NCBI GenBank assembly: GCA_041486085.1
Contig: JBGPKU010000009.1
Coordinates: forward strand, 375-64,374
From: Candidatus Limnocylindria bacterium
GTDB lineage: Bacteria > Chloroflexota > Limnocylindria > P2-11E
Reading direction: 5' to 3'
DNA: 64,000 nucleotides
Shown: one piece after another, positions 51,331-62,209 of the stretch
How positions within the stretch are numbered: position 1 is the stretch's first letter
Layout: the number at the start of each line of letters is the position of its first letter
The notes under the pieces: model-generated
Seen by the model: only the letters and a program-made list of their open reading frames with translations
What the model was told of the DNA's origin: nothing
The model's database searches: none
Position numbers and translations under genes: made by a program

Positions 51331-53178
51331 GTGAGGTCCTCCCGCGCCACCCTCCTCCACTACCTGGGACAGCACAAGCTCCGACTCGTGATGGGCGTCG
51401 CCATCGTCGGCCTGAGCTCGTTCGTCGCGGTGCTGCCTCCTCTCCTGATCGGCCGCATCGTCGACACGCTGACCACCCGCGCGGATCCCGATGCCGTCCT
51501 CAGGCTTGCGCTCCTCATGGTCGCGCTCGCGGGCGCCGAGAACGTGCTCCGGGGCTTCGGCCGCTGGCGCATCCTCGACGCGTCCCGGCAGATCGAATAC
51601 CGCATGCGCAACGATCTGCTGGCGCACCTGCAGACGATGCATCTCGCGTACTTCCAGCATCAGCGCATCGGCGATCTCATGGCCCGGCTGACGAACGATC
51701 TCCAGGCGGTGCGCCAGATGGTCGGCTTCGGCACGCTGATGCTGACGAACACGCTGCTCACGCTGCTGTTCACGTTCATCTCGATGTTCAGCGTCAACAC
51801 GAAGCTGGCGCTCATCGCGGTCGCGCTCACGCCGATCTCGTCCTACGTGTTCTGGACGATCGGCCGGCGCGTGAGCCAGCGCTTCGAGCAGCTGCAGGCG
51901 CAATTCGGCGACCTGTCGGCGAAGGCGCAGGAGAATTTCTCAGGGATCCGGGTGGTCAAGGCATTCAGCCAGGAGGAGCCCGAGATCACCTCGTTCGCCG
52001 TCGTCAACCGCGACTACCTCCAGAAAGCGGTCGACCTCGCGAAGGTGAACGGCCTCGTCTGGCCGGCGATGCAGTTCCTTCTCGGCGTGGCGGTGCTCGC
52101 GATCCTCTACGTCGGCGGGCAGGATGCGATCGAGGGGCGACTCACGATCGGGCAGCTGGTCCAGTTCGTCGCGTACCTCCAGATCATCTCGTGGCCGATG
52201 ATCGCTCTCGGCGAGGTCACCAACATGATCCAGCAGGGCTGGGCGTCGCTCGGACGCCTCGAGCAGATCTACGAGGCCCGGCCCACCGTCGCCGATCCGC
52301 AGGATCCCGTGCCGAGCCAGATCGTCGGGGCGGTCGAGTTCCGCGGCGTCGCGTTCGCCTACGGACAGACCATCGTCCTGCGCGACATCTCGTTCAGCGT
52401 GCCGGCGGGTGGATCGCTCGCGATCGTCGGCCTGACCGGCGCGGGCAAGAGCTCGCTCGTGAACCTCATCCCGCGGCTCTTCGACGCGCAGCAGGGGGAG
52501 ATCCTCATCGACGGCGTCGACGTGAAGCGCTATCCGGTGCCGGCGCTGCGACGCGCCGTGGGGTACGTGCCGCAGGAGACTTTCCTCTTCTCCGTGCCGC
52601 TCCGCGAGAACGTCGGCTTCGGGCGCGAGAAGGCGCTGTCAGATGCGGAGCTCGACTGGGCCGGCGAGGTCTCCCAGCTCGGCAAGGACGTGGAGGATTT
52701 CCCGGCGCGCTACGACACGATGATCGGCGAGCGTGGCGTGACGCTGTCGGGCGGTCAAAAGCAGCGCGCCGCTATCGCCCGGGCGGTCGCGAAGGATCCC
52801 AAGATCCTGATCCTCGACGACGCGCTCTCCGCGGTGGACACCTACACCGAGGCGGAGATCCTCAAGCGCCTGCGTGGCGTCATGCGTGAGCGCACCAGCA
52901 TCGTCGTGGCGCACCGCATCTCGACCGTGAAGGACGCCGACGAGATCCTCGTCCTGGACGATGGTCGCATCGCCGAGCGCGGGACGCACCGCGAGCTCCT
53001 CGAGCTGAAGGGCCTGTACGCCGGGATGTACCGGCGCCAGCTGCTGGAGGAGGAGCTCGAGGTCGACGAAGAGCAGTCCGAGCACGAGCGCCGGGTCCGC
53101 AGCGGTGCGCAGGACGACGAGCGGCCCTTCCCGCGCCCGGCACCGCGGATCGACGATCTTTCGGACGGGGACAGCTGA
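51331..53178 (+). CDS. ABC exporter, fused permease/ATPase (heterodimer half 1)
   Basis: Six-helix TMD. Walker A GLTGAGKSS, signature LSGGQKQR, Walker B ILILDDALSAVD. Confidence 0.85.
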   Translation: MRSSRATLLHYLGQHKLRLVMGVAIVGLSSFVAVLPPLLIGRIVDTLTTRADPDAVLRLALLMVALAGAENVLRGFGRWRILDASRQIEYRMRNDLLAHLQTMHLAYFQHQRIGDLMARLTNDLQAVRQMVGFGTLMLTNTLLTLLFTFISMFSVNTKLALIAVALTPISSYVFWTIGRRVSQRFEQLQAQFGDLSAKAQENFSGIRVVKAFSQEEPEITSFAVVNRDYLQKAVDLAKVNGLVWPAMQFLLGVAVLAILYVGGQDAIEGRLTIGQLVQFVAYLQIISWPMIALGEVTNMIQQGWASLGRLEQIYEARPTVADPQDPVPSQIVGAVEFRGVAFAYGQTIVLRDISFSVPAGGSLAIVGLTGAGKSSLVNLIPRLFDAQQGEILIDGVDVKRYPVPALRRAVGYVPQETFLFSVPLRENVGFGREKALSDAELDWAGEVSQLGKDVEDFPARYDTMIGERGVTLSGGQKQRAAIARAVAKDPKILILDDALSAVDTYTEAEILKRLRGVMRERTSIVVAHRISTVKDADEILVLDDGRIAERGTHRELLELKGLYAGMYRRQLLEEELEVDEEQSEHERRVRSGAQDDERPFPRPAPRIDDLSDGDS

Positions 53179-55061
53179 TGGCCGGACGCGGTGGCGGTGG
53201 CGGCGGCGGGCACGGCGGCCACGGTGGTGGCGCCGCGGGGTTCTTCCACGAGGACGAGATCCTCGGCAAGGCCTACGACGCGACGCTCACGCGCCGCCTG
53301 GTCGGCTACCTCGCGCCGTACAAGCTCTGGGTGGGCGTCTCGATCGTGCTGCTGCTCGTGCAGTCGGCCGCGCAGATCGTTCCACCGATCCTCGCGAAGG
53401 AGATCGTCGACCAGGCCGTGATCCCCGCGGTGAACGGCGCGCTCCCGCGGGACGACGCGTTCGGCCGGCTCACGCTCCTCGGCATCTTCTACCTCGCGGT
53501 CCTCGGCGTGGGCGCCGGCATCCGCTACGGGCAGACGCTCCTGACGACCTGGGTCGGACAGCGAGCGATGTACGACCTGCGCCTCGAGCTGTTCCGGCAC
53601 CTGCAGTTCCTACCGCTCGGATTCTTCGACCGGAACCCGGTCGGCCGCCTGATGACGCGCATCACCAACGACATCGACGCGCTCACCGAAATGGTCACGC
53701 GCGGCGTCGTCTCCATCTTCGGGGACATCGCCATGATCGTCCTGATCTCGATCGCGATGCTCATCCTCGACTGGCGCCTCGCGCTCGTGACGTTCGTGTC
53801 ACTGCCGATCCTCATCGCGCTGACCGCGTACTTCCGCGGCATGATGCGCGAGTCCTTTCGCGCGATCCGCATCCGGCTCGCACGGGTGAACGCGTACCTC
53901 AACGAGACGCTGTCGGGTATGGCGATCGTGCAGCTGTTCACGCGCGAGCGGCAGACCTTCGACGGGTTCGACGCACTCAACCGCGACCTGCTGGCCGCGA
54001 ACCGGGGCCAGGTCCGCGCGATGAGCGTCTTCCAGCCGACCGTCAACTTCACCCGCAATGCGACGGCCGCGGCGCTCTTCGTCGTCGGCGCGAACTGGAT
54101 CCTCGGCGGGACGCTGACGCTCGGGACGCTGGTCGCGTTCTGGCAGCTGCTGAACCAGTTCTTCCAGCCGATCCTGGACCTGGCCGAGAAGTACAACATC
54201 ATGCAGGCCGCGATGGCGTCGTCGGAGCGCGTGTTCCGGCTCCTCGACACGCGATCCAACATCCTCGATCCCGAGCATCCGATCGTGCTGCCACACGTGC
54301 GTGGTGAGATCGCCTTCCGCAACGTCTCGTTCGCATACAACGAGGGCGACTGGGTGCTGCGCGATGTGGACTTCACGATCAGCGCGGGCGAAAGCGTGGC
54401 CATCGTCGGCGCCACCGGGGCGGGGAAGACGTCGATCATCAGCCTGATCTCGCGCTTCTACGACGTGCAGAAGGGCAAGATCGTCCTCGACGGCGTCGAC
54501 ATCCGCGAGATGCGCCAGGTGGACCTGCGCCGGCACGTCGGCGTCGTGCTGCAGGACCCGTTCATCTTCGCGGGCACGATCGCCTCGAACATCCGCCTGA
54601 ATGACGCGGCGATCAGCGAGGACCAGGTGCGCTCGGCCGCACGGTTCGTGAACGCCGACAAGTTCATCGACCGTCTGCCGAAGGGGTACGACGAGGTGGT
54701 CACCGAGCGCGGATCCACGCTCTCGGTCGGACAGAAGCAGCTGCTGGCGTTCGCCCGGGCCATCGCCTTCAACCCGGAGATCCTGCTGGTGCTCGACGAG
54801 GCGACCAGCTCGGTCGACACCGAGACCGAGCACCTCATCCAGGACGCGCTCGCGAAGCTCATGAAGGGCCGGACCTCGATCATCATCGCCCACCGTCTGT
54901 CGACGATCCAGAACGTCGACCGGATCATCGTCCTGCACAAGGGACGCGTTGTGGAGATGGGCTCGCACCGCGACCTCCTCGCGCTGCGCGGCGTGTACCA
55001 CCGCCTCTACGAGCTCCAGTACCGGGCGCACGAAGCCGCGTCATCGCTGAAGACGGGGTAG
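53178..55061 (+). CDS. ABC exporter, fused permease/ATPase (heterodimer half 2) with Gly/His-rich N-terminus
   Basis: TGATG coupling to the previous gene. Walker A GATGAGKTS, signature LSVGQKQL, Walker B LLVLDEATSSVD. N-terminus is MAGRGGGGGGGHGGHGGG. Confidence 0.85.
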   Translation: MAGRGGGGGGGHGGHGGGAAGFFHEDEILGKAYDATLTRRLVGYLAPYKLWVGVSIVLLLVQSAAQIVPPILAKEIVDQAVIPAVNGALPRDDAFGRLTLLGIFYLAVLGVGAGIRYGQTLLTTWVGQRAMYDLRLELFRHLQFLPLGFFDRNPVGRLMTRITNDIDALTEMVTRGVVSIFGDIAMIVLISIAMLILDWRLALVTFVSLPILIALTAYFRGMMRESFRAIRIRLARVNAYLNETLSGMAIVQLFTRERQTFDGFDALNRDLLAANRGQVRAMSVFQPTVNFTRNATAAALFVVGANWILGGTLTLGTLVAFWQLLNQFFQPILDLAEKYNIMQAAMASSERVFRLLDTRSNILDPEHPIVLPHVRGEIAFRNVSFAYNEGDWVLRDVDFTISAGESVAIVGATGAGKTSIISLISRFYDVQKGKIVLDGVDIREMRQVDLRRHVGVVLQDPFIFAGTIASNIRLNDAAISEDQVRSAARFVNADKFIDRLPKGYDEVVTERGSTLSVGQKQLLAFARAIAFNPEILLVLDEATSSVDTETEHLIQDALAKLMKGRTSIIIAHRLSTIQNVDRIIVLHKGRVVEMGSHRDLLALRGVYHRLYELQYRAHEAASSLKTG

Positions 55062-55134: not shown

Positions 55135-55145
55135 ACTGCTTGGTT

Positions 55146-55565
55146 ATGGACACGCAGCAGGCCCACCGGAGCGCCGCGGAGCACCTGGACGCGACCTTCG
55201 CCGCGCTCGCCGATCCCACGCGGCGAAGGATCCTCGCGCGCCTCGCCGCAGGCGAGGCATCCGTCGCGGAGCTCGGCTCGCCGTTCGCCATGAGCCAGCC
55301 GGCGATCTCCAAGCACCTCCGAGTGCTGGAGCGCGCCGGCCTGATCTCACGCGGCCGCGACGCGCAGCGACGGCCGCGCCGGCTGGAGGCCAAGCCCCTC
55401 GCGACCGCCACCGAGTGGCTGGAGCGCTACCGCAGGCACTGGGAGGGCAACTTCGAGGAACTGGACGCCCTTCTGGAAGACCTGACGACACGAGAGAAGC
55501 AGGACAAGACAGCCAAGAGCGACGAGCCACAGGAACGCAGAAGGAAAAGGGGAACAGAGCGATGA
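55146..55565 (+). CDS. ArsR/SmtB-family transcriptional regulator
   Basis: FAALADPTRRRILARL...ASVAELGSPFAMSQPAISKHLRVLERAGLI. Confidence 0.85.
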   Translation: MDTQQAHRSAAEHLDATFAALADPTRRRILARLAAGEASVAELGSPFAMSQPAISKHLRVLERAGLISRGRDAQRRPRRLEAKPLATATEWLERYRRHWEGNFEELDALLEDLTTREKQDKTAKSDEPQERRRKRGTER

Positions 55566-56059
55566 GCGACACCGGAGAGCTGAAAGTGACCACGCCCTCG
55601 GACCTGGAGATCGCGATGACACGCGCATTCGATGCGCCGCGCAGGCTGGTATTCGACGCATACACCAAGCCCGAGCTGCTGACGCGCTGGCTCGGGGTGC
55701 GAGACGGTTGGTCGATGGCCGTGTGCGAGGTCGACCTGCGCGTCGGCGGCGCGTATCGCTGGGTCTGGCGTGGCGAGGGCCCCGAGATCGAGAGCACCGG
55801 CGTCTATCGCGAGATCGTCCGGCCCGAACGTGTCGTGAGCACGGAGCGGATGCGGGTCGGCCATGAGGCGAACCCGGGCGAGGCGCTCGACACGCTGATG
55901 CTGGTCGAGGAGAACGGCAAGACCACGTCGACGTGGACGATGCGCTTCGAGACCAAGGAGGGCCGCGACATGGCCCTGCAGTCGGGCATGGACCGGGGCG
56001 TGGCCGAAAGCTACGACGTGCTGGACACGCTCCTGTCGTCGATCGCCGCGCCTCGGTGA
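55562..56059 (+). CDS. SRPBCC/AHSA1-family protein
   Basis: ATGA overlap with the arsR-family gene. R.FDAPRRLVFDAYTKPELL.RW.....W......DLRVGG.YR is typical of Aha1-like START-fold proteins, which are often paired with ArsR. Confidence 0.7.
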   Translation: MSDTGELKVTTPSDLEIAMTRAFDAPRRLVFDAYTKPELLTRWLGVRDGWSMAVCEVDLRVGGAYRWVWRGEGPEIESTGVYREIVRPERVVSTERMRVGHEANPGEALDTLMLVEENGKTTSTWTMRFETKEGRDMALQSGMDRGVAESYDVLDTLLSSIAAPR

Positions 56060-56107: not shown

Positions 56108-57658
56108 GTGCGTCGTGCGCTCGTCCTTCTCGCGGCCCTGCTCATCGCGTGCACGCAGACGACATCGCCGGCCGCGACACAAAGCGCCGCAAGAGGCACG
56201 GCCGGGGGCGCGCTGGCCGCCGACCGAATTCAGCTCATGCACACCGACGACATCCACGGCCACCTCGACTACGACGTCGTCGGGGGCGGCGGCACATCGT
56301 TCAACCAAGGCGGCCTCGCGATGGTCGCGGCGCAGGCCAATGCGTTCCGCGCCCGCGCGCCGCAGCGGACGCTGCTGGTCGATGGCGGCGACGCCTGGCA
56401 GGGGACGTTCATCTCGAACGCCAACAAGGGCGAGGCCGTCACCAGGGCGATGAGCCTGATGAGATACGACGCGCTCGCCGTCGGAAACCATGACTTCGAC
56501 TGGGGACAGGACGTGCTCGCGCAGCGTGCCAGGGAAGCGAGCTTCCCGTTCCTCGCGACGAATGTCGTCGAGACCGCCACCGGGAAGCTGCCGGCATACC
56601 TGAAGCCGTACCTCGTGAAGGATCTCGGGATCACGAAAGTCGGCATCCTCGGCGTCACCAATCCCGGCTCGAACACCATCGTGAAGGCGACGAGCGTCGC
56701 AGGGCTCACGTTCGGCCCCGCGACGCAGGTGCAGCCGTTCCTCGCCGAGCTGCAGAAGCTCGCGGACATCATCGTCGTCGTCGCGCACATCGGCACCAAC
56801 GACGCGGCGACACTCGCCCGCGACGTGCCGGGCATCGATGTCATCGTCGCGGCGCACGACCACGCGCCGATCCAGACGGCGCGCGTCGAGGGAAAGACCA
56901 CGATCGTCGACGCCGGCGCGTATACCCAGTACCTGGGACGCCTCGAGATCATCGTCGATCCCGCCACGCACAAGATGAAGGACGCGGTGCGCGCCGGCGA
57001 GCTGGTGGCCATCGCCGCGTCGCAATCGCTCAAGCCCGACGCGGAGGTGACCGCGATCGTCGACGCGCGGCGGGCCGAGGCCGACAAGTACACCTCGCGC
57101 GTCGTCGGCACGATCAAGTCGGATCTCGACAACCCACGCGACGAGTGCGGCCTGGGCAACATGATCGGCGACTCGCTCGTCGAGTACGGCAGGAAGATGG
57201 GCTGGAAGACCGACGTGGGCTTCTACAACGCCGGCGGCGTGCGTGCGCCGCTGAAGGCGGGGCCTGTCACCTACGGGCAGCTCTACTCGGTGCTGCCGTT
57301 CGAGAACACCGTCGTCAACGTCGACCTGACCGGCGCGCAGCTCAAAGAGGTGCTCGAGGACGCGTCGGGTCGCGCCGGGCGCCTGCAGATCGGCGGCGGC
57401 AGCTGGGTCTACCGCTTCACGAACGCGGGGGGTGAGCGCGTCCTGGAAGCGACGGTCGCCGGACAGCCACTCGATCTCAAACGCATCTATCACGTGGCGA
57501 CCATCGACTACCTACTGCTCGGCGGCGACGGCCACACCTGGTTCGGCAAGGGGACGAACGTGATCTACGGCGACATCGAGTCGGATGCGGTCGCCGCTTA
57601 CATGACCGCGCATTCGCCGCTCGACCCGAAGGTCGAGGGCCGGATCACGCAGCGTTAG
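56108..57658 (+). CDS. lipoprotein 5'-nucleotidase / metallophosphoesterase
   Basis: Lipobox LLIAC. Metallophosphatase motifs HTDDIHGH, GGDAWQG, GNHDFD, AHDH. C-terminal 5'-nucleotidase domain. Confidence 0.8.
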   Translation: MRRALVLLAALLIACTQTTSPAATQSAARGTAGGALAADRIQLMHTDDIHGHLDYDVVGGGGTSFNQGGLAMVAAQANAFRARAPQRTLLVDGGDAWQGTFISNANKGEAVTRAMSLMRYDALAVGNHDFDWGQDVLAQRAREASFPFLATNVVETATGKLPAYLKPYLVKDLGITKVGILGVTNPGSNTIVKATSVAGLTFGPATQVQPFLAELQKLADIIVVVAHIGTNDAATLARDVPGIDVIVAAHDHAPIQTARVEGKTTIVDAGAYTQYLGRLEIIVDPATHKMKDAVRAGELVAIAASQSLKPDAEVTAIVDARRAEADKYTSRVVGTIKSDLDNPRDECGLGNMIGDSLVEYGRKMGWKTDVGFYNAGGVRAPLKAGPVTYGQLYSVLPFENTVVNVDLTGAQLKEVLEDASGRAGRLQIGGGSWVYRFTNAGGERVLEATVAGQPLDLKRIYHVATIDYLLLGGDGHTWFGKGTNVIYGDIESDAVAAYMTAHSPLDPKVEGRITQR

Positions 57659-57687: not shown

Positions 57688-58461
57688 GTGCGCGTCGCGG
57701 TCGATGCGGCGCGCACCGCTGGGTCCGCGCTCCTCTCGCGCTGGGAGCGCCGCGGCGCCGGCCTGGGGACGAAGACCACCAGCACCGACGTCGTGCTCGA
57801 CGCCGACCGCGCGGCGGAGGCCGAGGTCGTGAAGATCCTGCGGGCCGCGTACCCCGACGACACCATCGTCGCGGAAGAGGGCTCGGGCGGCGGCGAGCAA
57901 TCGTCCGGCCACCGCTGGTTCGTCGATCCGCTCGATGGGACGGTGAACTACCTCTACGGCATCCCGCACTACGCCGTGGCCATCGCGTGCGAGGACAAGA
58001 CCGGTCTCCTCGCGGCGGTCGTCTACGACCCGTCGCGCGACGAGCTCTTCACCGCTGTTCGCGGGGCGGGGGCGTGGCTCCATCGGGAGCGCCTCGCCGT
58101 GAGCGGCGCATCGGATCCGGCGAGCAGTCTCGTCGCCACGGGCTTCGCCTACGTGGCGGAGGCGCGCGCCGAGCAGGCGCGCATCCTGAGCGGTGTGCTT
58201 CCGCACGTCCGCGACATCCGTCGCTTCGGCTCGGCCCAGCTCGACCTCGCCTGGACAGCCGCGGCCAGATGGGATGGGTACTTTGAGTCCGTCGACAAGC
58301 CGTGGGACTGGAAGGCCGGTGCGCTCATCGTCGCCGAAGCCGGAGGCCGTGTGACGCAGCTTCGGCAGGCGCGGCCCGGCCACCCGCACATCGTCGCGAG
58401 CGCTCCTCTGATCCACGATGCTCTCGTGACGCTGCTCGGGCGCGCCGTGCAAAGCCGTTAG
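57688..58461 (+). CDS. suhB: inositol monophosphatase family protein
   Basis: Motifs EE, DPLDGTVNY, WDWKAGALIVAEAGG. Confidence 0.8.
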   Translation: MRVAVDAARTAGSALLSRWERRGAGLGTKTTSTDVVLDADRAAEAEVVKILRAAYPDDTIVAEEGSGGGEQSSGHRWFVDPLDGTVNYLYGIPHYAVAIACEDKTGLLAAVVYDPSRDELFTAVRGAGAWLHRERLAVSGASDPASSLVATGFAYVAEARAEQARILSGVLPHVRDIRRFGSAQLDLAWTAAARWDGYFESVDKPWDWKAGALIVAEAGGRVTQLRQARPGHPHIVASAPLIHDALVTLLGRAVQSR

Positions 58462-58482: not shown

Positions 58483-59073
58483 ATGGCGATCGAAGAGCGC
58501 CCCGCCGAGACCGCCAAAGGCGTCCCCATCGACTTCGAAGAGGACGTCATCCAGCGGCGTCCGGTGACCACGCAGGCGGGCCTGGGCGGCGAGGACTTTC
58601 CGCCTCGGCAAGCCGTCCTCGCCAACGACGACAACGTCGTCTTCAGCACCGTCTCGAACCTGGTGAACTGGGCGCGCTCGCGCAGCCCCTGGCCGCTCGG
58701 CTACGGACTGGCGTGCTGCGCCATCGAGATGATGGCGACCGCCGGGCCGCACCACGACCTGTCGCGTTTCGGCGCCGAGGTGTTCCGGTCCAGCCCGCGT
58801 CAGGCCGACGTCATGATCGTCGCCGGCACCGTCACCCACAAGATGGCACCGCGGCTGCGGCGGCTGTACGAGCAGATGCCCGAGCCGAAGTGGGTGATCG
58901 CGATGGGCAACTGCGCGTCGAGCGGTGGTGAGTTCTGGGACAGCTACGCGACGCTGCAGGGCGTCGACACGGTCGTGCCCGTCGACGTGTACGTCCCGGG
59001 TTGCCCACCGCGCCCCGAAGCGCTGACCGAAGGCGTGCTTCGACTCCGTGAAAAGATCATCCGGGGCGGCTGA
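58483..59073 (+). CDS. nuoB: NADH-quinone oxidoreductase subunit B (N2 cluster subunit)
   Basis: Motifs [30 protein letters not shown] 58474 is an alternative start. Confidence 0.9.
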
Positions 59074-60259
59074 GCTGGCTACCACCGACGCAGAGATCCG
59101 TCAGATCCAGGACGGCGCACAGGTCCAGCTTCCGGTCATCGAGTCGGACGATGGGCTCGAGGTCGAGGAGCTCATCCTCAACATGGGACCGCAGCATCCC
59201 TCCACGCATGGCGTGCTGCGTCTGGTCCTGAAGCTCTCCGGCGAGAAGGTCGTCGACTGCATACCGGTGATGGGGTACCTGCATCGCGGCCTCGAGAAGA
59301 TCTTCGAGTGGCGCACCTACCACCAGGGCATCCGCTACGCGGACCAGTCGGACTACGTCTCGAACATGCTGAACGAGCACGCCTACGCGGGAGCGATGGA
59401 GGCCATCGGCGGCATCGACGTCCCGCGGCGGGCCGAGTACGTCCGGACGATCGTCGACGAGCTGAGCCGCTGCGCCGCGCACCTCGTCTGGCTCGGCACG
59501 TACGGCCTCGACGTCGGCGCGACGACGCCGTTCCTGTGGTGTCTGCGCGATCGCGAGGAGATCCTCGACATGTTCGAGGAGCTCTGCGGCTCGCGCATGA
59601 ACTTCAACTACTACCGCCCGGGCGGGATCCTCTACGACTTCCCGCAGGGGTGGCTGAGCAAGCTCGAGCGCTTCCTGGACCGGTACGAGCAGCACATCGA
59701 GGAGGACTACGTCCGCATCCTCGAGGGCAACGAGATCTTCCTCGAGCGGACGATCGGCGTCGGCACGATCCCCGCCGACGTGGCGAAGGCCTTCGGCCTC
59801 ACCGGCCCGATGCTGCGCGCATCGGGGGTCGCGTGGGATCTGCGCGTCGACCGGCCGTACTCCATCTACCCGGAGCTCAAGTCGATGAAGCCGGTGGTGT
59901 TCCCGGACGGCGACGCGTTCGCGCGCTACAAAGTGCGCGTCGGCGAGATGCACCTCGCGATCGCGATCGTTCGCGAGTGCCTCGCGAACCTGCCCGGCGG
60001 GGCCGTTCGCGCGCGCCTCGGCCATGTGTGGAAGTGCCCACCCGGCGAGGCCTACTACACGGTCGAGGGAGCGAAGGGCGAGGTCGGCATCTACATGATC
60101 AGCGACGGGGTGAGCCCGAATCCGTTCCGCGCGAAGATGCGGGGCGCCTCGTTCCACAACCTGCAGATCGCGCCGTGGCTGCTGAAGGGCCGCCTCGTCG
60201 CCGACGTCGTCGCGATCCTGGGCTCGATGGACTTCGTGCTCGGCGAGGTGGACCGATGA
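59048..60259 (+). CDS. nuoD: NADH-quinone oxidoreductase subunit D (49 kDa), no NuoC domain
   Basis: Motifs [54 protein letters not shown] 59048 is the only in-frame start before the conserved core. Confidence 0.9.
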
Positions 60260-60285
60260 GCGAGCGACGAGAGTCGGACCGCTAG

Positions 60286-61005
60286 ATGTTCGGGATCGCC
60301 ACCGGTCTCATCCGCACGTTGCAGCATCTGTTGCGTCCGCGCCTCGTCACGCGCGACTACCCGTACGAGAGGCGCGAGCTGCCGGAGCGGTCGCGCGGTC
60401 TCATCGCGCTCCTGCTCGAGCCCGAGACGAGCATCTTCAAGTGCGAGTCGTGCCTGATGTGCGAGAAGGCCTGCCCGCCGCGCGCGATCTCGATCTCGTA
60501 CAAGTTCCGGAACGGCTTCCGGCGCCGGCCACTGCTGGCGCCGCGCGCCTCGTACTACCGCATCCGCATGGTGCAGACGGCGCCGTACGGCGACCGCCGT
60601 CCGATGTCGAGCGCGGTCCGGACCGTGCCGGCCGAGGCGGAGCGCGAGCTCGATCTCTCGATCGTCGACGCGCTCCTGCGCAACGAGCCCGCCGGTCGCG
60701 ATCGCCTCACGCGCGTGCTGTACCGCACGAACGCGGCGTATGGCTATCTCCCGTGGACCGCCGCCCAGCGCATCGCCGCTGCGTTCGCGATCACCATGAC
60801 CGACCTGTACACGGCGGCGTCGCTGCTCGCGAACTTCCGCGGCGCGCCAAGGGACACGGGCACCGCTGTGCCGCGCGGTGGCCGCAAGTACACCGGCAAC
60901 CTGGGCATCGCGGGTGCCTGGCCGGCGGTCTCACCGCCGCCCGCACACGATGAGCTGCACGAGCACGAGGCGCATCACGTCCTGGAACCGACCTTTGCCC
61001 GCTAG
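60286..61005 (+). CDS. chimeric NuoI-like (single 4Fe-4S motif) / NuoE-N-terminal-like protein
   Basis: NuoI-like N-terminus (TRDYPYE...RSRG...KCESCLMCEKACPPRAISI) with no second CxxCxxCxxxCP motif. The C-half (RVLYRTNAAYGYLPWTAAQRIAAAFAITMTDLYTAASLLANF) resembles the NuoE helical N-domain and has no Cys. Confidence 0.55.
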   Translation: MFGIATGLIRTLQHLLRPRLVTRDYPYERRELPERSRGLIALLLEPETSIFKCESCLMCEKACPPRAISISYKFRNGFRRRPLLAPRASYYRIRMVQTAPYGDRRPMSSAVRTVPAEAERELDLSIVDALLRNEPAGRDRLTRVLYRTNAAYGYLPWTAAQRIAAAFAITMTDLYTAASLLANFRGAPRDTGTAVPRGGRKYTGNLGIAGAWPAVSPPPAHDELHEHEAHHVLEPTFAR

Positions 61006-62209
61006 CACCGCCGCCAGCATTCTCGAGGGTCGTGGGGACAGCGGCGTCGGAACGGCCCGTGGTCTCGCGCCCGACGCGCTCATCGCGCTCATCGAGCGGA
61101 ACGACGTGCGTGGCCGCGGCGGCGCCGGCTATCCGTTGTCGAAGAAGATGCGAGCGGTGCGCGCTGCCGCGGCCGCGAGCGGTCGCGAGCCGCTGCTGAT
61201 CGCCAACGCGTACGACGCCGATCCGGGCAGCCCGATCGCGCGAACGCTCATCGAGCGCAACAAGGCCAACGTCCTGCAGGGCGTCGCCATCGCGGCGCAC
61301 GCGATCGGCGCGTTCGAGGCCATCGTGTACATGCACCCTGAGGCCGACGCCGCCCGCAGCGTCATGGAGCAGGACATCGTCAAACGGCGCGAAGGGCTGG
61401 GTGCGCTCGCCGTCACCGTCGCGCTCGGCCCCGGCGGGTTCATGGGCGGCGAAGAGAGCGCCCTGATGAACGTGCTCGAGTCGCGTCGCGCCATGGCGCA
61501 CCAGCGTCCGCCGTACCCGGCGACCAACGGGGTGCAGCAGCGCCCGACGCTCATCTCGAGCGCGGAGACGCTCGCGTGGCTTCCCCAGCTCGTGGCGAGC
61601 GGCGCCCGCGCGGAGACAAAGCTCGTCTCGGTCACCGGTGCGGTGAAGAAGCCCGGCATCTACGAGGTGGCGCTCGGCACCACCCTCGGCGCGATCCTCG
61701 ATCAGGCGGGAGGAGTCAGCGGTCAATTGAAGGCGATCCATGTCGGCGGACCGACTGGAGGGATCCTCGCGGCCTCCAGGCGCGACACCAAGCTCGGCTT
61801 CGATGAGCTCAGGGCCGCGGGCACGCATATGGGCTCGGCCCAGGTGCGCGCGATCGCGAGCGACACCTGCATCGTGGCCGAGGCGGCGAAGATGTTCGCC
61901 TACCTGGCCAGGGAGACCTGCGGCATCTGCGTGCCCTGCCGCGTCGGCACGGCGCGGGTCACGGGCATCCTCGAGAGCGTGCAGAGCCAGCTCGGCCGCG
62001 ACACCGACACGACCTGGCTGGACGAGCTCGGCGATCACATGGAGAAGTTCTCGCTCTGCGGCTTCGGCATCACCGCTCCGTCGATCCTGCGCACGACGAT
62101 GCGCGAGTTCGCGGCCGACTACGAGGCGCACATCAGGGAGCGGCGGTGTCCGACGGGCACGTGCGCTCCGATGCGGGCGCGACGGTACGAGACGATGGCG
62201 CAGCCATGA
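60995..62209 (+). CDS. nuoF: NuoF-like NAD(H)/FMN/4Fe-4S subunit
   Basis: Motifs GRGGAGYP, NAYDADPG, FMGGEESAL, SLBB segment, ETCGICVPCRVG, LCGFG. The start is tentative (TTG 60995; the ORF is open from 60878). Confidence 0.75.
   Translation: MPASTAASILEGRGDSGVGTARGLAPDALIALIERNDVRGRGGAGYPLSKKMRAVRAAAAASGREPLLIANAYDADPGSPIARTLIERNKANVLQGVAIAAHAIGAFEAIVYMHPEADAARSVMEQDIVKRREGLGALAVTVALGPGGFMGGEESALMNVLESRRAMAHQRPPYPATNGVQQRPTLISSAETLAWLPQLVASGARAETKLVSVTGAVKKPGIYEVALGTTLGAILDQAGGVSGQLKAIHVGGPTGGILAASRRDTKLGFDELRAAGTHMGSAQVRAIASDTCIVAEAAKMFAYLARETCGICVPCRVGTARVTGILESVQSQLGRDTDTTWLDELGDHMEKFSLCGFGITAPSILRTTMREFAADYEAHIRERRCPTGTCAPMRARRYETMAQP

Follow-up and report, generated by a model that had tools for sequence, protein, structure and literature searches.

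Complex I receives electrons through an input module that varies, with NADH, F420H2, ferredoxin or flavodoxin as donors, and its Q-module, including NuoI, is treated as an invariant core. Among described enzymes, the closest relatives of the input genes analysed here are StnABC of Sporomusa ovata (PDB 8oh5) and NfnABC (9bov/9bp5 and 9n5u), which are bifurcating NADH/ferredoxin:NADP+ oxidoreductases. In Stn, the FAD of the GltD domain is the site of NADPH oxidation, from which electrons pass along the StnC clusters, and bifurcation requires the thioredoxin-like and ferredoxin-like domains of StnB together with the [2Fe-2S] cluster of StnA (PMC10482914; this and all other papers are cited here from excerpts of their text). 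Non-bifurcating homologs are told apart by missing clusters B2-B5 (Schut et al. 2022, PMC9304861), and in the Nuo-Bfu operons BfuABC takes the place of NuoEFG inside nuo operons (PMC9304861). The stretch of DNA studied here (the window; 64,000 nt, positions 375-64374 of contig C9) comes from a Limnocylindria metagenome-assembled genome (MAG; G000) that is 82% complete. Near its end it contains a cluster in which nuoB and nuoD are followed by a cassette of three genes, which encode a NuoI/NuoE-like chimera (I/E), a NuoF-like protein (F*) and a [2Fe-2S]::GltD fusion (G*). Contig C9 stops 297 nt after the window, so the last of these genes is incomplete.

Judged from its sequence, the cluster is probably the cofactor-bearing part of the organism's only complex I, which would be one proton-pumping NAD(P)H:quinone oxidoreductase with a NuoI subunit split between I/E and G*. 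As a variant of complex I, it is real and conserved, and it has apparently not been described before. The 239-aa NuoI/NuoE-like chimera reported in the initial annotation was confirmed as an ORF in a single frame (Table 1). The G+C content at third codon positions (GC3) is 0.82-1.00 in that frame from ~60280 to 60900, and this uniformity indicates one reading frame. The possibility of a frameshift or assembly artefact was ruled out by the GC3 plot, by the 404 homologs described below and by the presence of I/E in 25/25 related loci. Residues 5-81 of I/E align with NDUFS8/NuoI chains in a PDB search. The protein contains exactly four cysteines (Cys53, 56, 59 and 63), which form one CxxCxxCxxxCP motif, and these cysteines and Pro64 are invariant in 31/31 aligned homologs. 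The NuoE-like part lacks the thioredoxin-like [2Fe-2S] domain and its cysteines; distant homologs retain full NuoE, including the cysteines. In the AlphaFold2 (AF2) model, the helices at residues 116-179 have a predicted local distance difference test score (pLDDT) of ~90. The top Foldseek matches of this helical domain all belong to the NuoE family (FdsG, NfnC, HydC and StnA), with ~66 aligned columns, root-mean-square deviations of 1.6-2.0 and E-values of 0.014-0.08, no match being found at E <= 0.001.

Homologs of I/E numbered 404 at E <= 0.001 in 90% clusters, and the best 120 of these 404 are 74-95% identical and mostly 238-241 aa long; at 50% clustering, 16 representatives were found with E <= 1e-30. 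Among the sampled Chloroflexota genomes, I/E has matches in 107/401 (E <= 1e-8), and all sampled members of families f1-f4, f9, f24 and f28 (89 genomes) are among these. The weakest matches in the 401 genomes probably represent ordinary NuoI and extend over no more than query residues 1 to ~75.

The 2Fe-2S::GltD fusion that had been noted after the NuoF-like gene is also present, its ORF being incomplete at the contig end and containing Fer2_4, Fer4_20 and Pyr_redox_2. The part of G* that lies in the window gave PDB matches to 9bov_A (441 bits), 9n5u_A (437 bits) and 8oh5_C (420 bits). Just past the window, C9:64409-64657 matches positions 97-175 of NuoG, and the best NuoG-model match of the whole genome covers only positions 1-101 and 97-175. 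In genomes of the same family, the NuoG model aligns with G* at positions 1-101 and 97-199, which flank the GltD insert. In the orthologue at the related locus L023, the G* frame runs for 806 aa without a stop and ends in the C-terminal half of NuoI, and an extension of G* to ~806 aa with the same end was found in 25/25 long related loci. From the N- to the C-terminus, the L023 protein is composed of the [2Fe-2S] domain, the GltD module, the motifs CxxCxCx5C, CINCTQCVRIC and CVSCGACAETCP, and a piece of the type found at the start of contig C61 of our genome, with CIYCGDCVEVCP. Since the frame is unbroken in L023, C61 was taken to continue C9 and its apparent 'nuoI' to be the C-terminus of G*. 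The C61 match as a true nuoI downstream of the GltD gene was ruled out, because the GltD ORF of L023 runs into it. Residues 33-732 of L023 G* align with residues 6-696 of Caldicellulosiruptor NfnA (9bov_A, 532 bits) and with residues 5-695 of Sporomusa StnC (8oh5_C, 522 bits), and Thermococcus NfnA scored 478 bits. In the full-length AF2 model, the [2Fe-2S] and GltD domains are confident. Homologs with a matching C-terminus numbered 510 at E <= 1e-10, and they include proteins of Thermogemmatispora, Ktedonobacter robiniae and Dictyobacter that are labelled just 'FAD-dependent oxidoreductase'.

The case for a split NuoI is based on searches with TIGR01971, the NuoI model (cut-off 113 bits), in our genome and in 39 genomes of its family. 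In our genome, no match exceeded the cut-off, and a single NuoI subunit with 2x[4Fe-4S] was not found. The best match lies at the start of C61 (C61:6-128, model positions 72-112, 48.9 bits), and the second best is I/E (positions 1-68, 39.7 bits). The same division is apparent in the family: among the matches listed, NuoI positions 1 to ~70 fall on an ORF of ~240 aa in 37/39 genomes and positions 69-112 at the end of an ORF of ~800 aa in 38/39. Canonical NuoI and NuoG both exceeded their cut-offs in 2/39 genomes, the same two in each case (G415 and G418). These counts include two genomes flagged as unpublished (G409 and G421), without which 35/37 have no canonical NuoI or NuoG. In BLASTP comparisons, residues 8-75 of the canonical NuoI of G415 are 39% identical to I/E residues 1-70, and its residues 91-141 are 42% identical to our C61 piece.

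A two-cluster ferredoxin fold requires two such cysteine motifs. The second- and third-last motifs of G* line up with the ferredoxin-like pair of NfnA/StnC and with Pfam Fer4_Nqo3, which accounts for their eight cysteines. Two motifs of four cysteines each are left as orphans, namely the final one of G* and the only one of I/E. All cysteines of both orphan motifs are invariant in the alignments. The simplest reading is that NuoI would be an inter-protein domain with its N-terminal half on I/E and its C-terminal half on G*. A complex prediction for I/E residues 1-95 and the NuoI C-half of C61, made without control runs, gave scores of 0.22 and 0.21 (below the mark of 0.32) and has no bearing on binding either way.

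It is rather unlikely that NuoI was instead relocated as a whole. According to this alternative, the same single complex would be formed, and the last two cysteine motifs of G* would be a complete NuoI-like domain, with the half-NuoI of I/E serving as an N-terminal anchor to NuoH/NuoB-D and as carrier of an extra cluster paired with CINCTQCVRIC. Residues 696-767 of G* indeed align with both motifs of NuoI from E. coli, Thermus and a same-genus bacterium (phmmer and BLASTP), and Pfam Fer4_7 covers residues 696-742, but the loop between the motifs would be 13 residues shorter than in canonical NuoI. HMMER, moreover, divides the end of G* into a complete ferredoxin-like unit of its own (positions 32-102, ~32 bits) and, after it, a half unit with a higher score (69-112, 46-49 bits). 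The collinearity of the first two of the three motifs with the NfnA/StnC pair and Fer4_Nqo3 also speaks against relocation, and the I/E motif would still have to pair with a motif of G*.

The initial annotation had reported a NuoF-like protein with divergent FMN, NADH and N3 motifs. The motifs GRGGAGYP, GGEESA, CGICVPC and LCG, with an N3-type [4Fe-4S] site, were found in F*, the longest ORF of which starts at GTG 60878, homology with relatives favouring ATG 60950. The best PDB matches of F* are the B subunits of HydABC, StnABC and NfnABC (212-230 bits), with Aquifex NuoF at 177 and Thermus Nqo1 at 153 bits, and F* scored 229 bits against a NuoF-model cut-off of 559. The alignments span only the core of the ~600-aa B subunits (residues 149-538 of a 597-aa chain). 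The Pfam content of F* is limited to Complex1_51K, SLBB and NADH_4Fe-4S, and neither Fer4 nor thioredoxin-like domains were detected by Pfam.

The comparison with StnABC and NfnABC can thus be made subunit by subunit. G* is collinear over ~700 residues with StnC/NfnA and shares their architecture, namely the [2Fe-2S] domain, the GltD insert with two [4Fe-4S] clusters and the FAD/NADPH sites, and the NuoG-type [4Fe-4S] clusters. F* corresponds to the core of the B subunit and the helical domain of I/E to the N-terminal domain of StnA/NfnC. The differences are that the N-terminal thioredoxin-like [2Fe-2S] and C-terminal 2x[4Fe-4S] domains of the B subunit (B2-B5) are absent from F*, that the [2Fe-2S] cluster of the A subunit (A1) is absent from I/E, and that in G* (806 aa) a NuoI C-half is found instead of the FdhF-like (molybdopterin-fold) C-terminal domain of StnC (1172 aa). 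In addition, an N-terminal NuoI half is located on the NuoE-like protein, and the genes lie within or beside nuo genes.

In line with the initial annotation, which viewed the Q-module core as intact and the electron-input side as rebuilt, NuoB and NuoD have ordinary motifs and the input subunits are replaced. NuoB (alternative start ATG 58483) contains Cys81, 82, 147 and 177 in a motif scan, so the N2 cysteine motifs, including PGCPP, are complete as reported. The noted overlap of 26 nt between nuoB and nuoD holds if nuoD starts at GTG 59048; with this start, 44 residues precede the N-terminal motif of NuoD, not the ~35 given earlier. The claim that NuoD has no fused NuoC domain agrees with the Pfam search, in which PF00329 gave no match in the nuoD product. 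In the PDB, NuoD matched NdhH with 343 bits and Thermus Nqo4 with 315 bits, and its motifs are GPQHPSTHG, GYLHRGLEK and a C-terminal DFVLGEVDR. A motif scan of NuoD revealed no [NiFe]-ligand CxxC motifs at either end. By these features, NuoB and NuoD are classed as complex I type, and NuoD is predicted to be quinone-type and not a hydrogenase subunit. The N2 cysteines of NuoB and the quinone-type motifs of NuoD presumably have the functional role that these names imply.

The lack of nuoA, nuoC and nuoH noted earlier holds at the cluster and not in the genome, as all three are on contig C24, where Pfam searches of the ORFs revealed nuoA-C-H-J-K-L-M-N without B, D or I. The genome thus encodes NuoA, B, C, D, H, J, K, L, M and N, all of the ordinary type, with B and D on C9 and the rest on C24. 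In family searches of the genome, NuoC and NuoH matches were found on C24 and C54, and NuoD matches on C9 and C54. The only second NuoB-like gene is fused to a ferredoxin in a [NiFe]-hydrogenase cluster on C54, so the only non-hydrogenase NuoB and NuoD are those of the window. The NuoB, NuoC-D and NuoH proteins of C54 were considered as partners of the C24 operon and ruled out, as they belong to a [NiFe]-hydrogenase with its own ferredoxin::NuoB fusion. Since no other non-hydrogenase copies were found, the window NuoB and NuoD are the sole partners on offer to the C24 membrane operon, which in turn is the one place where they would fit. Similar C-H-J-K-L-M-N operons were found in 4/4 family relatives examined, with nuoA directly upstream in 3/4 (nuoA detection under a 40% identity filter). 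From its gene order, the complex I operon of the window family is divided into a locus with B, D, the cassette and midA beside suhB and a second locus with A-C-H-J-K-L-M-N.

No canonical counterparts of the cassette were detected elsewhere. PF01257 (NuoE) had no match in the genome, in keeping with the reported lack of a canonical nuoE, the single match of PF01512 is F*, and no second copy of I/E or F* was found by tblastn. In the 82%-complete genome, searches revealed neither a canonical NuoE or NuoG nor a whole NuoI, a second NuoF or a standard nuoA-N operon. Relative to canonical complex I (Thermus Nqo1-15, E. coli Nuo and the mitochondrial core), the system therefore shares ordinary A, B, C, D, H and J-N subunits with their N2 and Q-site motifs, as well as the E-F-G order of the input genes, the FMN/N3 motifs and the NuoG-type [2Fe-2S] domain. 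It differs in that the NuoE [2Fe-2S] cluster is missing, that NuoG is reduced to its first ~200 model positions and interrupted at position ~100 by a GltD FAD/NAD(P)H module, that NuoI appears as two halves on two proteins and that, in the window family, the genes are in two loci.

In the proposed enzyme, NuoB, NuoD and the input cassette would assemble with NuoA, C, H, J, K, L, M and N from C24. The cassette would be a trimmed relative of StnABC/NfnABC in place of NuoE, F, G and I, and the NuoI halves of I/E and G* would combine across the two subunits into a two-cluster ferredoxin fold (N6a/N6b) and so fasten the cassette to NuoB/D/H. Two electron branches are envisaged, one from NADH through the FMN of F* and N3 to the [2Fe-2S] and NuoG-type [4Fe-4S] clusters of G*, and the other from NADPH through FAD to the two GltD [4Fe-4S] clusters of G*. 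Both would lead through the split NuoI to N2 in NuoB and on to quinone, coupled to proton pumping. StnABC and NfnABC, the nearest relatives of F* and G*, work with NAD(H) and NADP(H), which fits the different or additional nucleotide donor suggested in the initial annotation. Bifurcation is improbable, since the enzyme lacks the Fe-S domains that are typical of its bifurcating relatives. Assembly of all subunits into a single complex is what we infer from the gene inventory.

Complex I is reversible, and the direction of electron flow may be the opposite one, with the proton-motive force (pmf) driving quinol electrons to NADP+ and/or NAD+, or the two nucleotide sites may exchange electrons in a transhydrogenase reaction. 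The reverse flow would supply NADPH in bacteria in which H2, CO or other high-potential donors reduce the quinone pool. The textbook reversibility of complex I is in favour of this reading, as are the descent of the cassette from reversible NADH/NADPH transhydrogenases (PMC10482914) and the oxidation of atmospheric H2 and CO by a cultured carrier, Thermogemmatispora (PMC6776052). We nevertheless judge it improbable, as no canonical complex I was found in 37/39 family genomes, which would then have no pumping entry for NADH; type II NADH dehydrogenase was not searched for.

The arrangement of the genes in relatives bears on whether nuoB-nuoD and the cassette belong together. The related loci (n=80) are nearly all from Limnocylindria or Chloroflexota MAGs, and gene orders were counted in the 25 that are longer than 15 kb. 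In 25/25 of these, the order is nuoB-nuoD-I/E-F*-G*-midA, with the C61-type piece included in G*. In sister families of the same class, the genes form one operon, midA-nuoA-B-C-D-H-[I/E]-[F*]-[G*]-J-K-L-M(-N), in 4/4 genomes (G034 of family f2, G124 and G381 of f3 and G133 of f4). The I/E-F*-G* trio thus sits between nuoH and nuoJ, which is the place of nuoI in ordinary operons. Outside the class, genome G211 (f19) has the order A-B-C-D-H-I/E-F*-G*, and four genomes of other classes (loci L114, L115, L125 and L126) have nuoB-I/E-F*-G*.

The last of these arrangements, with nuoB alone before the trio, and the fact that the best matches of F* and G* are the soluble StnABC and NfnABC would be compatible with two unrelated adjacent units, i.e. 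nuoB-nuoD of an 11-subunit-type complex I and a soluble Stn/Nfn-like NADH:NADP+ oxidoreductase made of I/E, F* and G*. The position of the trio in 4/4 sister-family operons is at odds with this, and so is the NuoI sequence at both ends of the trio. The complex would also be left without any NuoI, a whole NuoI having been found neither in our genome nor in 37/39 relatives, and G*, with 806 versus 1172 aa, has no counterpart of the oligomerising FdhF-like domain of StnC. We consider such a pair of units very unlikely.

A bifurcating 'Nuo-Bfu' enzyme that would co-oxidise NADH and reduced ferredoxin, as proposed for Geobacter-type operons, can be dismissed as highly improbable: the higher scores of F* against bifurcating B subunits than against NuoF and the precedent of BfuABC for NuoEFG inside nuo operons (PMC9304861) are outweighed by the missing N-terminal thioredoxin-like and C-terminal ferredoxin-like domains of F*, by the absence from I/E of the [2Fe-2S] cluster whose loss abolished Stn bifurcation (PMC10482914) and by the assignment of the Schut clades to other phyla (PMC9304861). 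What the Nuo-Bfu operons have in common with the present system is a HydABC-family module that replaces NuoEFG amid the genes of a nuo operon. In the cited excerpts, they differ in having full BfuB/BfuC clusters, a separate NuoI and no GltD, and their hosts are Deferribacteres, Proteobacteria, Planctomycetes and Nitrospirae (PMC9304861). The BfuB set of that survey was limited to proteins with a 4Fe-4S ferredoxin-type domain (PMC9304861), and F*, which has none, was probably outside it. Mbx-like operons with a GltD-type flavoprotein for NuoI (Degli Esposti 2015, PMC4758237) resemble our cluster in having GltD at the NuoI position. As described in the excerpts, they are hydrogenase-derived, with vestigial [NiFe] cysteines in the NuoD homolog and no NuoF/FMN subunit (PMC4758237). 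Our cluster, by contrast, has a quinone-type NuoD and retains the NuoI sequence in divided form.

Several observations weigh against a single complex with a split NuoI as the organism's only complex I. The C9-to-C61 junction was inferred from relatives and not assembled, our own G* being broken over two contigs. Because the MAG is 82% complete, a canonical operon could sit in its missing part, and 2/39 relatives (G415 and G418) have the canonical form next to the cassette form; from this, both designs can coexist in one genome. NuoI residues 58-141 can be aligned to the last two motifs of G* (696-767), which makes a whole NuoI-like domain in G* possible. The AF2 models have pLDDT <50 for I/E residues 18-106 and <35 for G* residues 637-806, with no usable Fe-S geometry in either region. 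For the NuoI half of I/E, the low values would be compatible with a half-fold but lend it no weight. On the pairing of the motifs the G* model is silent, since even the two motifs that beyond doubt form a folded pair in Stn are at <35. The NADH and NADPH specificities are derived from family membership only, and the direction of electron flow is likewise inferred. Finally, the N3 motif of F* in sister family f2 (L116, G034) is CGKAVPC, with one cysteine replaced, and the FMN branch may be decaying or non-working in some lineages.

If the reading of a split NuoI is true, the inter-protein NuoI fold would be a previously unknown way of docking an input module to complex I, with the two parts of a core subunit on different proteins of a borrowed module, which is of the transhydrogenase type and has a second, NADPH-type flavin site. 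An enzyme working as proposed would link the NADPH pool directly to the quinone pool and the pmf and would represent a modular route for grafting input modules onto the pump. It would also explain why surveys scored many Chloroflexi as having no NuoG, and hence no complex I (PMC4453560). In that source, many Chloroflexi are reported with 13/14 subunits, lacking only NuoG (PMC4453560), and a figure legend gives 'nuoA-E,H-N' for Thermomicrobium (PMC6776052). No description of this split-NuoI, Stn/Nfn-type architecture as a known family was found in the full-text literature, supplements such as the clade tables of PMC9304861, which were not covered, being places where such clusters could be listed. 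It is conceivable, if somewhat doubtful, that in a large part of Chloroflexota, including cultured Ktedonobacteria, the main proton pump is a two-flavin NADPH- and NADH:quinone oxidoreductase or, in reverse, a pmf-driven NADPH generator/energy-linked transhydrogenase, held together by the inter-protein NuoI fold. The carriers are abundant soil and freshwater bacteria, and the idea is directly testable because cultured Thermogemmatispora, Ktedonobacter and Dictyobacter carry G* homologs.

Table 1. Features of the nuo cluster, its proteins and the upstream region (window positions unless residues are given)
Feature	Position	Strand	Basis or remark
ABC exporter	53178-55061		annotation; upstream of cluster
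ArsR-type regulator	55140-55565		annotation; upstream of cluster
AHSA1/SRPBCC-domain protein	55415-56059		annotation; upstream of cluster
5'-nucleotidase	56108-57658		annotation; upstream of cluster
SuhB-like inositol-monophosphatase family gene	57688..58461	+	PF00459 187.6 bits
nuoB, carrier of cluster N2, 199 aa	58474..59073	+	PF01058 108 bits; NF005012 242 bits
nuoD, quinone-site subunit, 403 aa, without fused NuoC	59048..60259	+	NF008974 441.6 bits
I/E protein, whole ORF, 239 aa	60286..61005	+	NuoI models residues 4-81; HoxE weakly 113-191
NuoI N-half of I/E, residues 1 to ~80	60286..60525	+	TIGR01971 positions 1-67/68
NuoE/HydC/StnA-type N-terminal helical domain of I/E, residues 113-191	60622..60858	+	weak HoxE match
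F*, NuoF/BfuB-like FMN-NADH subunit, 419 aa from ATG 60950	60950..62209	+	Complex1_51K, SLBB, NADH_4Fe-4S
G*, [2Fe-2S]::GltD fusion, cut by window/contig end	62220..64000	+	Fer2_4, Fer4_20, Pyr_redox_2 (Pfam)
G* [2Fe-2S] domain, NuoG-type	residues 34-107	+	Pfam, NCBIfam
G* GltD-type 2x[4Fe-4S] domain	residues 130-203	+	Pfam, NCBIfam
G* FAD/NAD(P)H domains	residues 226-524	+	Pfam, NCBIfam

As reported earlier, nuoB is preceded by suhB rather than nuoA, and the inositol-monophosphatase gene was confirmed at its position, ending 12 nt before the start of nuoB. The SuhB-like gene is immediately 5' of nuoB in 19/25 long related loci and 2.3-3.3 kb 5' of it in the other 6, and the 5'-nucleotidase gene is found 5' of suhB in 16/25. 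The SuhB-like gene is a neighbour conserved on the upstream side and probably does not contribute to the enzyme.

On the other side of the cluster, the gene directly after G* on C61 (L013:317-1366) encodes a MidA/NDUFAF7-family SAM methyltransferase (PF02636, 183.8 bits). A MidA-type gene follows G* in 25/25 related loci and precedes nuoA in 3/4 sister-family operons (L123, L124 and L127). NDUFAF7 is a complex I assembly factor, so that this neighbour speaks for a role of the cluster in complex I, and the mitochondrial family methylates the NuoD homolog during assembly; an arginine that we take to match the mitochondrial methylation site is located in the GYLHRGLEK motif of the window NuoD. 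Past the NuoI C-half, G* of the family has a proline-rich tail with the consensus VRPPEVRPPAPPRWGA (L013:3-269) and invariant P77 and P81. This tail, which has no counterpart in canonical NuoI, may be a contact with a membrane subunit. In the f2 locus L116 (G034), the NuoE-like part keeps the thioredoxin-like domain and has lost the last two cysteines.

Sequence identities of the cassette and of NuoB/D were compared between sister-family loci (L116, L123, L124 and L127) and loci of other classes (L114, L115, L118, L125 and L126). G* of the window family is 59-62% identical to G* of other Chloroflexota classes versus 44-48% to that of sister families of its own class, and the window NuoD is 63% identical to that of G211 versus 43-46% to those of sister families. 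This cross-class likeness hints at lateral transfer or at two old cassette lineages.

In the same-genus genome G415, a second, canonical nuo operon lies beside the cassette form on contig C21 (L128:4566-18519, minus strand). Its tblastn matches run from nuoA-B-C-D through F- and G-like sequences to H, a whole NuoI and K-L-M-N, with no match to the NuoE or nuoJ queries. G418 also has canonical NuoI and NuoG above the cut-offs. The cluster on C54 of our genome (L011:10536-17879, minus strand) is a separate group-4 [NiFe]-hydrogenase cluster, which adjoins genes for an aldehyde dehydrogenase and a TPP enzyme. Its large subunit is of the NuoC-D type with both CxxC nickel motifs, and it also encodes a fusion of a 2x[4Fe-4S] ferredoxin with a NuoB-type small subunit, a NuoH-like subunit and two antiporter-like subunits. 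The search with the NuoG model further detected molybdopterin-oxidoreductase frames of ~850-1150 aa with one in-frame TGA, at G000:C38:24590-25174 and in many relatives, which are probably selenocysteine formate dehydrogenases.

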